Below are positions 21,439 to 30,836 of a DNA stretch of 64,000 nt, piece by piece. How positions within the stretch are numbered: position 1 is the first letter of the stretch; each line of letters starts with the position of its first letter. The notes under the pieces were generated by a model, which saw nothing but the letters and a program-made list of their open reading frames with translations, did not search any database and was not told the DNA's origin. The stretch is from an uncultured bacterium (GTDB lineage: Bacteria > Omnitrophota > Omnitrophia > Omnitrophales > Aquincolibacteriaceae), in the NCBI GenBank assembly GCA_964562525.1, contig CAZLTL010000004.1, positions 6,171-70,170 of the forward strand, written 5' to 3'. The translations under genes and the position numbers were made by a program.

Positions 21439-21515
21439 CGCGGGGTGGAGCAGCTCGGTAGCTCGTTGGGCTCATAACCCAAAGGTCCCAGGTTCAAATC
21501 CTGGCCCCGCTACCA
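21439..21515 (+). tRNA. initiator tRNA-fMet (anticodon CAT)
   Basis: Near-identical in architecture to E. coli tRNAfMet: CGCGGGG acceptor with a C1 mismatch, three consecutive G-C pairs in the anticodon stem (GGGCTCATAACCC), an encoded CCA and a T-loop GGTTCAAATCC. Confidence 0.9.
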
Positions 21516-21525
21516 TATAACGCTA

Positions 21526-21560
21526 AGAGCCACAGTCACTTAAGACTGTGGCTCTTTTGC
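21526..21560 (+). terminator. hairpin terminator after the tRNA (probably island-borne)
   Basis: AGAGCCACAGTC-acttaa-GACTGTGGCTCT followed by TTTTGCTTTG. Confidence 0.6.
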
Positions 21561-21582
21561 TTTGTAATCCATAAAATACCCC

Positions 21583-21604
21583 CTGTTAACACTTTTGTTA
21601 ACAG
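21583..21604. repeat. half-copy of the island GTTAACA-palindrome element (GTTAACACTTTTGTTAACAG)
   Basis: Shares GTTAACACTTTTG with the full repeats at 28323, 30077 and 30584. Sits 68 nt after the tRNA 3' end and 26 nt before the first island gene. Confidence 0.5.
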
Positions 21605-21629
21605 TTCATCCATTGAAGCGTGAACCTAT

Positions 21630-22460
21630 ATGACAGAATGTATTTCTCAAGCCCTTAAAGACCTTTTGCCGGAGCATCCGCACAAGCGATATGCCCCTAT
21701 AGAGGTTTGCATTTATTGCGGCAGCAAACAAAATTTAAGTGATGAGCATATTATCCCGTATGGTTTTGGCGGTAGATGGGTGCTTCCCAAAGCTAGCTGT
21801 TTTAATTGTGCAAAAAAAACGAGTCAATTTGAAATGGTTTGTCTTCGTACAATGTATGGGCCATTACGCCAGCTATACGATCTCCCTAGCAGAAAAGGGA
21901 AAGCAGATAAGTTACCTTTAAAAATTAAATATGTGCCATCTAATGAATGGCAAACAGTTTTGGTGGATCAGGTTGATTATCCTTTTTTAGTTGGTTTCCC
22001 TTATTTCTCATTGCCTAATCTGGTTTCAGGTGCGAAAGATGCGGAGAGAACTGGAGCAACAACCAAGCGCATATGGATACGGGGCGCTTCTGCATATGTA
22101 AATTTCGATGAGCATCTAAAAGCTTTAAGTCAGCGATTAAAAGCGTACGAGTTATTTCCAGAGTTTCATCTTCATGTTAAAGAATTTTGTCAGATGCTTG
22201 TTAAGACGGCTTATTCATATGCAGTGGCTGAGCTGGGTTATGGCGTATTTAAGCCTTTTCTGTTACCGCACATCGTCCAAGATGAGTTATCCAATTGTGC
22301 AGACTTTATCGGTAGCTTAGAAAAAGATGAGATTCCGGGGAAAGCACTTCACGAATTATTTATCTGCAATACTATGAGAGGCGATATCGCGGTAAGAGTG
22401 CGCTTTTTAGCAAAATTAGGCACGCCAACTTATTTTGTTGTTGTGGGATCAGTTAATTGA
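21630..22460 (+). CDS. HNH-nuclease-domain protein with a C-terminal domain of unknown function
   Basis: N-terminal CIYCGSK..SDEHIIPYGFGG..CFNCAKKT matches the C-x2-C / D-H-I-x-P / N / C-x2-C HNH pattern. The ~200 aa C-terminal region has no recognisable motif. Confidence 0.55.
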   Translation: MTECISQALKDLLPEHPHKRYAPIEVCIYCGSKQNLSDEHIIPYGFGGRWVLPKASCFNCAKKTSQFEMVCLRTMYGPLRQLYDLPSRKGKADKLPLKIKYVPSNEWQTVLVDQVDYPFLVGFPYFSLPNLVSGAKDAERTGATTKRIWIRGASAYVNFDEHLKALSQRLKAYELFPEFHLHVKEFCQMLVKTAYSYAVAELGYGVFKPFLLPHIVQDELSNCADFIGSLEKDEIPGKALHELFICNTMRGDIAVRVRFLAKLGTPTYFVVVGSVN

Positions 22461-22473
22461 GGAATTTGATTAA

Positions 22474-23214
22474 ATGATTTGTCGGTATTGCAATCAGGAA
22501 ACAAAGCTCATAAAGTCCCATATAGTTCCCGAGAAGTTTTATTTGCAGGCGTTAGACCGGACTCAAAAAAACGACAAGCTTATTATCATTGATAAGCGAA
22601 AAAAATATACACCTGCATCTCCAATCGGACTTTATGACCTTGGCATTTTATGCGCTTCATGTGACGGTAAGCTTGGTGTCTTTGACAACGCCGCACAGTT
22701 GTTATTTCTAAAAGACATTCAACGATACAAGTCCCCAGATAAAGATTTGTATGTTTTGCCCTTATCTGCTTTTGACTACCAAAAAATAAAATTATTCATT
22801 GTTTCAGTGCTGTGGAGAGCATCAATATCTACACTAGAAGCTTTTGAGGCTGTTCAGCTCGGCTATAAATACGAAAAAATAGCATTAGATATTATAAAAG
22901 ATCCATCAAAAGATGATGATGACACATTTGCTTTTTTTGTTTTGAAATTTAAGAATAAGCCCAACTTAAGAATGGATGGGATATTTGTGCCTCCAATGAG
23001 GAACAAAATCGATGGTATAAATAGCTATAGGTTTGTTTTTGCCGGGTATGTTTTTCATATTAAAGTTGATAGTCGCAAGTATCCTCCTCTATTTCATGGT
23101 CTTTGTTTGAGTTCAAAGAGAGACTTTTTAATAATCGAGACCAGCCCTGAGAATGAAAAATTCACATTGGAACATATGAACGGAATACGGATTGCTAGGC
23201 AAAATTTACAGTAA
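22474..23214 (+). CDS. HNH-nuclease-domain protein, paralog of the upstream gene
   Basis: CRYCNQ..KSHIVPEKF..CASCDGK HNH-like N-terminus. GAGGA RBS 10 nt upstream. AT-rich with an unknown C-terminal domain. Confidence 0.55.
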   Translation: MICRYCNQETKLIKSHIVPEKFYLQALDRTQKNDKLIIIDKRKKYTPASPIGLYDLGILCASCDGKLGVFDNAAQLLFLKDIQRYKSPDKDLYVLPLSAFDYQKIKLFIVSVLWRASISTLEAFEAVQLGYKYEKIALDIIKDPSKDDDDTFAFFVLKFKNKPNLRMDGIFVPPMRNKIDGINSYRFVFAGYVFHIKVDSRKYPPLFHGLCLSSKRDFLIIETSPENEKFTLEHMNGIRIARQNLQ

Positions 23215-23621
23215 ATTACAAACACACCTAAATAAAAGGTTCTGGATACCGTGGGGACAGGTCGATTTTCTTCATCTTTAAGGGACATGATCCCGAATGT
23301 GCGGGATATGTGTGGGGGGGGATGTAAAAAGTAAAATGCCTCTTGCTTGGAAACCGAACCGTTAGCCATTTTTTTGCGAAACTGAGTTTTAAGATAGCCT
23401 GTCTTTAGCAAACGCTGTAAAGCCTTATAGCAAAATAAGCTATAACCCATTTCAACAAGTTTTTTATGCCTTCCCGAAATAAAAATATTTTCTAGCGAAA
23501 AATAATTTTATTTAAAAAAGTTAAAAAACTCCTCTTTTCACCACATTAGTGTAGTGAGAGCCATCGTTAACTCTTATGTTTAAGAGAATGACGAGGGTTT
23601 TTAAAAGAAGAGGAAAAATAT

Positions 23622-23837
23622 ATGAAGAAAAAAGCACGCACTCCGCTCAAATCAATCCGCATTTACTGCACCACAGTCTGTTCCAGTCAGTTAAAAGAAG
23701 TTCGCTTGTGTTCTATGAGCGATTGTCCGCTTTATATCTATCGGTTTGGGCGAAATCCATCCAGATCAGGCATTGGTGGGACCTTAGATAAGATTACTCG
23801 AAAAAATGATGTTGAGTCGGGCAAAACTACAAAATAA
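23622..23837 (+). CDS. small Cys-rich (putative zinc-ribbon) protein; alternative frame 23576-23791 is equally possible
   Basis: 71 aa with C-x3-C ... C-x4-C spacing. AGAGGAAAAATAT RBS before the ATG. Confidence 0.3.
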   Translation: MKKKARTPLKSIRIYCTTVCSSQLKEVRLCSMSDCPLYIYRFGRNPSRSGIGGTLDKITRKNDVESGKTTK

Positions 23838-23847
23838 GGGCATTTCC

Positions 23848-30054: not shown

Positions 30055-30076
30055 GATATTGTGATGCGCTTGGATA

Positions 30077-30134
30077 CCCAGCGGTCTATTTGTTAACAGT
30101 AGTTGTTAACACTTTTGATGGCAAATAGCGGTTA
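30077..30134 (+). repeat. island repeat copy B (ACCCAGCGGTCTATTTGTTAACAGTAGTTGTTAACACTTTTGATGGCAAATAGCGGTTAA)
   Basis: Differs from copy C at only two positions across ~58 bp. Precedes the 30161 gene. Confidence 0.7.
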
Positions 30135-30160
30135 AAAGTGAATGAAAAAAAGGGGGAGGG

Positions 30161-30529
30161 ATGATTTCATTTTTAAGAAAATTTCTACCGAATCAAGATT
30201 TGAAAGTTGCATTTAAAAATGTAATGGAAATAAGGATGGGGGCGCCTTTTAATGGCGCAGATTTGGAGCTAACAGGTAGTTGGATTCCTGATCTTCCTCA
30301 GGGGGGATGGCAAGATTTAACAGCATGTAGTAGCGACAAGCGATATGTAGGTCTTGTGCGCTGGGAGCATCTCGAAGGAAGTCCAAACTTCGTTGTTTAC
30401 ACAATTGATACCAAAAGGAAAGACTTCACAAAAGCTGATCGCGTAGCTGGCTGCTGCAAGAAAATATGGTGGGATGAAAATTCTCAGAAATTTGAATTTG
30501 ATCGTTTTTTGTATGTAAAAACCAAATGA
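30161..30529 (+). CDS. hypothetical protein (island cargo)
   Basis: 122 aa. Strong AGGGGGAGGG RBS. Confidence 0.45.
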   Translation: MISFLRKFLPNQDLKVAFKNVMEIRMGAPFNGADLELTGSWIPDLPQGGWQDLTACSSDKRYVGLVRWEHLEGSPNFVVYTIDTKRKDFTKADRVAGCCKKIWWDENSQKFEFDRFLYVKTK

Positions 30530-30583
30530 AGCCACAGAAATCTTGCTATTTGCTCTAGATGTCGCTTAGCAATTTTTGACTTA

Positions 30584-30641
30584 CCCAACGGTCTATTTGT
30601 TAACAGTAGTTGTTAACACTTTTGATGGTAAATAGCGGTAA
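30584..30641 (+). repeat. island repeat copy C
   Basis: ACCCAACGGTCTATTTGTTAACAGTAGTTGTTAACACTTTTGATGGTAAATAGCGGTAA. Last copy, ~105 nt before attR. Confidence 0.7.
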
Positions 30642-30735
30642 ATATCGGTCAAACTCGGATAAATAAATTTTCAAAAAATTCTCCTAACTCCTTTATTTTT
30701 GGTTATATCGGTCAATGTTGGATAATATCGGTAAA
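30642..30735. repeat. three ATATCGGT(C/A)AA direct repeats (candidate integrase arm-type sites) proximal to attR
   Basis: atatcggtcaaactcggataa (30642), atatcggtcaatgttggataa (30705) and atatcggtaaa (30725). Confidence 0.5.
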
Positions 30736-30748
30736 TGTTTTGAAGCTC

Positions 30749-30798
30749 GCTCATAACCCAAAGGTCCCAGGTTCAAATCCTGGCCCCGCTACCATATA
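30749..30798 (+). repeat. attR: 50-bp exact direct repeat of the tRNA-fMet 3' half (anticodon loop to CCA plus TATA)
   Basis: gctcataacccaaaggtcccaggttcaaatcctggccccgctaccatata is identical to 21470-21519. Confidence 0.9.
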
Positions 30799-30801
30799 GA
30801 A

Positions 30802-30836
30802 AACCCGATTGGGCTTTAGCCCAGTCGGGTTTTTTC
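30802..30836 (+). terminator. rho-independent terminator (probably the original tRNA terminator)
   Basis: AACCCGATTGGGC-ttta-GCCCAGTCGGGTT followed by TTTTTC. Confidence 0.65.

Follow-up and report, generated by a model that had tools for sequence, protein, structure and literature searches.

The DNA analysed here, a 64,000-nucleotide (nt) stretch of contig CAZLTL010000004.1 (positions 6,171 to 70,170; hereafter the window), comes from the Omnitrophota, a phylum of uncultured, often ultra-small and possibly host-dependent bacteria. To our knowledge, the mobile elements and immune systems of this phylum are almost undescribed. The window holds a single tRNA gene, called as tRNA-Met(CAT) by ARAGORN with Rfam in agreement, and its sequence shows typical initiator features, namely a C1xU72 mismatch and an anticodon stem closed by three G–C pairs. 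In this tRNA-fMet gene sits the subject of this report, a site-specific integrative element of 9.28 kb. Its ends are marked by an exact 50-nt direct repeat derived from the tRNA, as the original prediction, made from the letters of the window, had claimed; the repeated block consists of the last 46 nt of the tRNA plus TATA. The 3′ part of the tRNA-fMet gene is now supplied by the island. As the second copy of the repeat is a mere 3′ fragment, called as a tRNA by neither ARAGORN nor Rfam, the repeat is not part of a tandem tRNA array.

The interval had also been described as AT-richer than its flanks, and the 9,229 nt between the repeats do have a GC content of 38.7%, compared with 46.9% outside the island. 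Windows of equal size elsewhere have a standard deviation of 0.73% and a minimum of 45.0%, which places the island about 11 standard deviations lower. GC at third codon positions is 0.23–0.44 in the island open reading frames (ORFs) versus 0.45–0.52 in the flanking genes. The host UvrB (19222–21282) is 85% identical to the UvrB of Candidatus Omnitrophota metagenome-assembled genomes (MAGs). On the left, the flank is syntenic over 10792–21606 with L001, a locus in one of these MAGs; on the right, it is syntenic from 30825–30848 onward with L085 and L086, two metagenome contigs from more distant relatives. The breakpoints in homology therefore coincide with the copies of the repeat. A terminator hairpin follows each copy, as predicted, and a hairpin is present at the position equivalent to that of the left one both in L001 and in a remnant at the tRNA-fMet locus of another relative, L087.

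The gene read as a phage-type tyrosine integrase proved to be one, with a complete active site (R-K-HxxR-H-Y). Residues R190, K222, H285, R288, H311 and Y320 align with R148, K172, H244, R247, H270 and Y279 of XerD and are invariant in six family members. A pseudogenised integrase is thereby ruled out, as is a tandem tRNA array, given that there is one tRNA in the whole window and the second copy is a fragment; both had been set beforehand as outcomes that would speak against an island. The single tRNA, the repeat, the low GC content and the intact integrase, together with relatives that occupy the same tRNA with different cargo, bear out an integrative island in tRNA-fMet. We consider it likely that a lambda-type tyrosine integrase inserted this 9.28-kb element in the 3′ half of the initiator tRNA gene and that its cargo includes a toxin–antitoxin (TA)/abortive-infection-type cassette. 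The features of the locus are collected in Table 1.

Table 1. Genes and sites of the integrative element and its target, in window coordinates (L labels denote related loci)
Feature	Position	Strand	Evidence or remark
tRNA-fMet (anticodon CAT), integration target	21439..21515	+	ARAGORN; Rfam RF00005, 62 bits
attL core, 50 nt, from last base of anticodon stem to CCA plus TATA	21470..21519	+	exact direct repeat
Island-borne terminator hairpin, replaces native tRNA terminator	21525..21556	+	13-bp stem, then T run
P′-arm dyad CTGTTAACAC-TTTT-GTTAACAG	21583..21604		unchanged in L001 and the L087 remnant, where flanks diverge
Left-bay 276-aa protein, HNH_5-type N terminus	21630..22460	+	PF14279 1.2e-6, narrowly over cut-off
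Left-bay 246-aa protein, CxxC...H N terminus of HNH_5-like type	22474..23214	+	phrog_19960 3e-17, function unknown
71-aa Cys-rich (Zn-ribbon-like) core protein	23622..23837	+	48–50% identical to same-position ORFs of L091 and L087
DUF5659-like core protein, ~76 aa	23848..24078	+	PF18903 7e-5; 64–68% identity in L087 and L091
167-aa core protein, replisome-organiser/DnaD-like loader N-terminal domain	24106..24609	+	phrog_1701 2e-16; phrog_6251 2e-10
77-aa helix-turn-helix (HTH) core protein, candidate excisionase/regulator	24613..24846	+	weak HTH_17 match, conserved helix
Palindrome ACCTTTGGGTAACCTACCCAAAGGT, mimics tRNA anticodon arm/att core	24835..24860		in L001, L087, L091 and L102
Regulatory-region dyad TGTTAACAGTGTTTGTTAAC between convergent HTH and RHH genes	24905..24925		co-varies with P-arm 8-mer of same element
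45-aa ribbon-helix-helix (RHH) core protein	24939..25076	-	RHH_5 and RHH_1 above cut-off; NikA-like, TraY weak
RHH–int divergent intergenic region, two 22-nt repeats (GTAAGTAA motifs)	25077..25154		candidate operator
Tyrosine integrase (int), catalytic residues intact	25163..26197	+	PF00589 1.4e-28; XerD/XerC alignment; strong phrog_1 match
Cassette gene A, 238 aa, uncharacterised family	26323..27039	+	
Cassette gene B, 216 aa; C-terminal ~90 aa alone conserved	27036..27686	+	Pfam and PDB, no match
Cassette gene C, 217 aa: HEPN-fold domain plus small helical C-terminal domain	27668..28321	+	
Internal partial P-arm copy 1 (dyad and first two arm-type repeats)	28309..28369	+	repeat 79% identical
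Transglutaminase-like (Transglut_core2) plus TPR protein	28398..29549	+	hydrophobic, signal-peptide-like N terminus (by eye, translation)
Skp/OmpH-like periplasmic chaperone	29554..30054	+	PF03938 5e-9; listed ORF start 29512, probable start 29554
Internal partial P-arm copy 2	30075..30135	+	95% identical to terminal copy
122-aa orphan	30161..30529	+	match in no library
P arm: dyad 30598-30617, YGGWNAA repeats at 30626/36/46/56 and 30709/19/29	30582..30748	+	
attR core, displaced original tRNA 3′ part	30749..30798	+	exact direct repeat
Native tRNA terminator hairpin and T run	30798..30835	+	terminator-like hairpin; homology of relatives resumes 30825-30848

Core genes and relatives of the element

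The island has 13 credible ORFs. Six of them have a Pfam match that reaches the curated cut-off, and one more, DUF5659, falls narrowly short of it (23.0 bits versus 23.6); the earlier impression that almost every ORF lacks a domain was overstated. A core of ~2.6 kb lies in the middle of the element and comprises the Zn-ribbon ORF, DUF5659, the replisome-organiser-like gene, the HTH gene, the RHH gene and the integrase gene. It separates two variable cargo bays, one reaching from attL to the core and the other from the integrase to attR. The replisome-organiser-like protein is 60–69% identical in L001 and L087. The helix QxYRWxQRNY of the HTH protein is invariant across six elements, five of which have GQSYRWMQRNY. 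This protein had been termed AlpA/Xis-like: the AlpA label found no support, and the excisionase part stood to the extent that four of the six orthologues weakly match HTH_17 (best E 0.004), the window protein itself being without a Pfam match. The RHH gene was confirmed where it had been placed.

The weak NikA-like and TraY matches of the RHH protein and the strong phrog_1 match of the integrase raise the possibility of a degraded prophage, or of an integrative mobilizable element (IME) dependent on a conjugative helper, with the RHH protein in the role of a relaxosome accessory protein. However, generic RHH family matches are at least as good, and genes for a relaxase, a coupling protein, a type IV secretion system (T4SS), a capsid, a terminase or a tail are absent among the 13 ORFs. 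In searches of these ORFs against Pfam, PHROG and NCBIfam, no relaxase, T4SS or coupling match, as would mark an integrative and conjugative element (ICE) or an IME, was obtained, and Pfam and PHROG gave no structural or lysis gene among the island ORFs. We regard an origin as a prophage or IME as highly improbable.

Public metagenomes contain ~70 related integrases at ≥40% identity, with one source label naming a phylum outside the Omnitrophota, and family contexts were recovered for six relatives. The L001 integrase (80% identity) lies at the same uvrB–tRNA-fMet site. The L001 element begins right after the tRNA; its cargo genes encode ArsR, a MIP channel, ArsC and CrcB, then an ankyrin protein and a PLD nuclease, and the rep-like gene and int come after them. 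In this locus, the tRNA-fMet is followed by C TTTT, not CCA (L001:11819-11825); the L001 element thus restores the tRNA as far as the discriminator base and one C, leaving the CCA end incompletely encoded. L087, L088 and L090 (integrase 74–75%) have the core, int, Abi_2, a small ORF and a 45-nt tRNA-fMet 3′ fragment. The L091 element (81%) carries a type I restriction–modification (R-M) system and a weak GP3_package (small-terminase-like) match on its left. To the right of its core and int lies a ClpP/SDH-type protease, and at the contig end come the shared P arm and the same tRNA-fMet fragment. More distant members include L092 and L093 (56–57%), which adjoin tRNA-Pro and show a weak DUF3800 match after int, and L102 (55%), with genes for an OLD-family nuclease, a DnaJ-domain protein and a superfamily 1 (SF1) helicase beside the core. 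In L102, a 39-nt imperfect (77%) direct repeat (L102:7881-7919 and 11973-12011) brackets the core, int and two small ORFs (~4.1 kb), with no tRNA nearby; this segment may represent a minimal element inserted outside a tRNA gene. Core genes are 48–69% identical between elements, except for the L091 rep-like protein (25%), and the cargo bays have nothing in common. The relatives' bays hold recognised defence or resistance genes.

Tandem remnants are preserved at the tRNA-fMet locus of L087 (L087:4596-6760). There, attR is followed by an insertion sequence (IS; rve transposase), a P′-type hairpin with the GTTAAC dyad described below and a 140-aa ORF; the array continues with a second tRNA fragment, which a hairpin-like insert of 64 nt interrupts, and one more P′-type hairpin. 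These remnants indicate that accretion at tRNA-fMet does occur.

The element also invites comparison with phage satellites and P4/P2-type defence hotspots (phage-inducible chromosomal islands (PICIs) and P4-like elements). In a PICI-type satellite, a helper phage would induce excision and rep-like replication, helper capsids would be hijacked and the cargo would act against helper or competing phages. The 9.3-kb size, int, the adjacent small HTH gene, the divergent repressor-like RHH gene and the replisome-organiser-like gene resemble satellite cores. The small-terminase-like match beside the L091 core fits too, and the bays of relatives are variable and hold defence genes (Abi_2, type I R-M and, weakly, DUF3800), as do those of known satellites. 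By contrast, the present copy has no primase/helicase, small-terminase (terS), capsid, portal, capsid-remodelling or packaging-redirection gene; the 167-aa replisome-organiser N-terminal-like protein is all it has in place of a primase/replicase, with no terS or capsid match. Its int and rep-like gene are without a relative in IMG/VR, and we know of no helper phage for this element. A PICI-type satellite is, in our view, very unlikely.

Attachment arms, dyads and a proposed mechanism

The P arm, next to attR, has a defined order: the dyad, made up of two 8-mers, comes first, then the string ACTTTTGATGGTAAAT, a group of four YGGWNAA repeats, a spacer and three further repeats. The repeats keep an exact 10-nt pitch, and the three-repeat group abuts the core site. 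The same layout, with ACTTTTGATGGTAAAT conserved, is found in L087, L088, L090 and L091. The strict form YGGWMAA-N3-YGGWMAA has no other occurrence in the window (0.10 expected) and, in the fetched loci, is limited to P arms. Judged by their sequence and spacing, the 10-bp-pitch YGGWNAA repeats are presumably arm-type integrase sites.

The dyad recurs at a distance from the P arm. The pattern GTTAAC-N6/7-GTTAAC is found five times in the window, always within the island, against an expectation of 0.02: at 21585 (P′ arm), 24906 (the gap between the HTH and RHH genes), 30599 (P arm), and 28326 and 30092 (internal). The dyad is perfectly conserved in L001, L087 and L091 although the flanks have diverged. 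Its 8-mer is TGTTAACA in the window, L001 and L091; in L087 it is GTGACAAT, in the regulatory region as well as in the P arm, and the regulatory-region 8-mer is TGTTAGCA in L092 and TGTRAGCA in L102. Such co-variation would be the signature of a specific protein–DNA pair common to the regulatory region and the att arms. A role of the dyad as a sigma-70 promoter was rejected, its spacing being unfit, by eye, for a −35/−10 pair; a consensus scan placed no plus-strand promoter at the dyads, and the region has fewer sites than shuffled sequences.

The two internal dyads belong to partial copies of the P arm (79% and 95% identity over 61 nt), which suggests that modules were added to the right bay step by step. 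The perfect palindrome ACCTTTGGGTAACCTACCCAAAGGT overlaps the stop codon of the HTH gene and copies 11 nt of the anticodon arm (ACCCAAAGGTC); it may serve as a core-type integrase site inside the element or as an attenuator. Between the divergent RHH and int genes, 22-nt direct repeats (GTAAGTAAATGTAAGTAATTAT) lie at 25077–25098 and 25133–25154, and the counterpart region of L001 and L091 has other repeats.

Beyond the intact integrase and the conserved site architecture, we infer the following course of events. The integrase would have occupied the arm repeats as well as core sites around the anticodon loop and recombined attP with the tRNA, probably in or next to that loop. Because the element brings its own tRNA 3′ part and terminator, the essential initiator tRNA would remain intact and functional, and the displaced original would become attR. 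The HTH protein is a candidate directionality factor, given its weak excisionase-type match and its position next to int, and the RHH protein is a candidate repressor of the divergent RHH/int region. The dyad would tie the arms to the regulatory region and thus link excision and integration to the element's own regulator. The rep-like protein may permit transient replication after excision. The bays would carry exchangeable accessory modules, among them A-B-HEPN as a TA/abortive-infection module with C as its effector.

The element itself is a classical tRNA-targeting integrative island. The closest known elements are such islands with lambda-type tyrosine integrases, of the anticodon-loop sublocation class. 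The present element shares with them a repeat that corresponds to the 3′ part of the tRNA from the anticodon stem/loop, a restored tRNA with its own terminator, tandem repeats in the P arm, a small HTH gene upstream of int, deviant composition and tandem accretion. It differs in that the integrase and regulators are central with cargo on both sides, in the 8-mer dyad common to both arms and the regulatory region, and in the internal anticodon-arm-like palindrome. In the literature searched, no tRNA-targeting island of this type is described for the Omnitrophota, and the lineage-restricted family to which the element belongs, with its central core, two bays and co-varying dyad, was not found. 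With this island, the Omnitrophota gain a concrete family-level model of an integrative element, with a target site, arm architecture, regulatory dyads and two cargo bays.

The A-B-C cassette

The right bay opens with three translationally coupled genes, A, B and C (26323–28321). A full HMMER scan with protein A gave 609 clusters at 50% identity, whereas a word-indexed search had shown few relatives. Protein C has 64 relatives in bacteria and archaea, in long (~215 aa) and short (~150 aa) forms. The A-B-C order is conserved in three other contexts. In L096, the cassette lies beside a tRNA 3′ end (identities: A 39%, B 49%, C 47%). In L097–L100, it is inside an operon whose other genes match HmaC/DUF499, the HmaB/DUF1156 methylase and the HmaA/SNF2 helicase. 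In L101, it is found between ATP synthase genes and housekeeping genes. A recent survey (PMC12839542) describes standalone HEPN modules as frequent effectors, in an auxiliary or backup role, within DUF499 ('Hma'/'BR') systems, which agrees with the operon context of L097.

Protein C adopts the four-helix up-down arrangement of the HEPN fold. Taken together, the conserved gene order, the HEPN fold and the defence contexts suggest that A-B-C is most likely a TA/abortive-infection-type defence module in which C would be the effector. The cassette departs in several respects from the described HEPN toxin modules (HEPN-MNT, AbiV and the DUF499/Hma/'BR' auxiliaries). C is without the Rx4-6H motif; its helix 4 has instead a nearly invariant R..LR..SE..RYL pattern (R100..L102-R103..S106-E107..R110-Y111) in which a His at the expected spacing is absent, and invariant His and Glu residues lie elsewhere. 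Among the invariant residues of C are H48, E51, H61, E63, H80, R83 and R110. Unlike the partner in HEPN-MNT, B has no nucleotidyltransferase motif: Pfam and PDB gave no nucleotidyltransferase match, and a four-sequence alignment shows no GS...DxD motif. The cassette adds the conserved protein A (~235 aa, with a fold that has no clear relative), present in every bacterial copy, and A, B and C match nothing in Pfam, NCBIfam or PADLOC. The cassette, which neither Pfam nor PADLOC picks up, is a candidate for a new HEPN-based system. A wider proposal is that A-B-C is an unnamed, widespread anti-phage system of the abortive-infection type, with a non-canonical HEPN effector held in check by B and with A as the sensor, and that the element family is a dedicated shuttle for defence modules at the initiator-tRNA locus; this is conceivable, and we put it forward tentatively.

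Further occurrences of cassette-like genes were noted. On the Logan contig L096, the cassette is bracketed by two ~50-nt copies, ~70% similar, of a sequence like the 5′ end of a livH-type permease gene (L096:1-460 and L096:2440-2549), an arrangement that would point to a very small insertion, devoid of an integrase, with a repeat that mimics its target. Searches of phages and plasmids with C (tblastn) returned no match. On a viral contig, a distant HEPN-like gene directly follows a 158-aa ORF that resembles B by eye, without a BLASTP match. The E. coli plasmid pLAO61 (L104; NZ_OP242280.1) and four other enterobacterial plasmids of 2.6–3.6 kb encode hypothetical proteins with the best-conserved motif of A, ~42% identical to residues 32–96 of protein A; in L104, the protein A match overlaps the start of a 184-aa ORF, which is followed by a 121-aa ORF.

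Presumed mobility of the element and cargo outside the cassette

The original prediction had proposed a search for an empty-site allele, and none was found. Scanning GTDB genomes with UvrB turned up four relatives within the Omnitrophota, L001–L004. L001, the sole one with the locus assembled, is occupied by the related element; the L004 contig stops at the CCA of the tRNA, and in L002 and L003 the tRNA is absent after uvrB. A GHL10 scan of metagenomes for attB yielded two loci, L085 and L086, both with other upstream genes (a two-partner secretion locus) and hence no attB. Upstream of the GHL10 orthologue, L086 (L086:103-9924) encodes a secreted, repeat-rich protein of 2,663 aa together with a ShlB/FhaC-type transporter; because these genes stand where the window has uvrB, the tRNA and the island, the junction has been rearranged. 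Exact-protein look-ups recovered only Logan contigs of the same population (SRR13355622/SRR13355621). On both sides, these end 30 nt into the repeat, a consequence of the k=31 assembler that says nothing about excision. One such contig, L084 (SRR13355622), which covers the left part of the island, ends inside gene B (window ~27606) and not at the repeat, which may reflect strain variation or a drop in coverage.

These results bear on whether the island is fixed and domesticated, that is, an ancient, now immobile integration inherited vertically, with cargo differences arising by local recombination or replacement. The core is 74% identical to the L001 core at the nucleotide level and the host genes are 74–80% identical; the core has thus diverged about as much as the host genes, and long vertical co-residence fits as well as mobility. 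The two close relatives with an assembled tRNA, L001 and L004, look occupied, the second to the extent that its contig ends at the tRNA. The internal partial P-arm copies and the L087 remnants show decay and accretion in situ. By contrast, the 50-nt attR copy is still 100% identical to the tRNA despite having no coding role, and purifying selection is visible on the integrase active site and on the whole arm architecture throughout the ~70 family members. Moreover, family members adjoin other targets, such as tRNA-Pro in L092 and L093, and the GC content is still 8 points below that of the host. We judge a fixed island unlikely.

A mobile element with a TA/abortive-infection-type cassette is the reading we prefer, and several further observations count against it. 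Genome contigs, metagenome contigs, Logan look-ups and IMG/VR yielded neither an empty site nor an attP junction nor an excised circle, so present mobility is inferred. The integrase lies in the middle of the element and does not adjoin an att site, and the replisome-organiser likeness is limited to the N-terminal domain. With an invariant HTH recognition helix and two RHH types that occur with the same dyad, the dyad-binding protein is not assignable by co-variation, and the RHH type does not track the dyad sequence. As for the cassette, C has no canonical HEPN motif, no family hidden Markov model ties A or B to any function, and PADLOC matched neither A, B and C of the window nor those of L097.

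PADLOC-DB v2.0.0 gave a match at E≤0.1 for none of the ten cargo proteins, and NCBIfam and PDB sequence searches gave none on the cargo. In the left bay, plasmid homologues of the 276-aa protein are annotated as HNH endonucleases, with no PADLOC match, and the N terminus of the 246-aa protein is weakly similar to that of its neighbour; a tblastn search of phages with the 246-aa protein returned no match. On the basis of these N termini, the two are putative HNH_5-type nucleases. The original prediction had suggested that the cargo could be a new system: the A-B-C cassette, conserved, with a HEPN-fold protein, seen in defence settings and matched by neither PADLOC nor Pfam, supports that suggestion for its part of the cargo, and the envelope-type genes of the right bay do not share in it. 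The secreted transglutaminase-like/TPR protein and the Skp/OmpH-like protein look like envelope accessory genes rather than defence genes.

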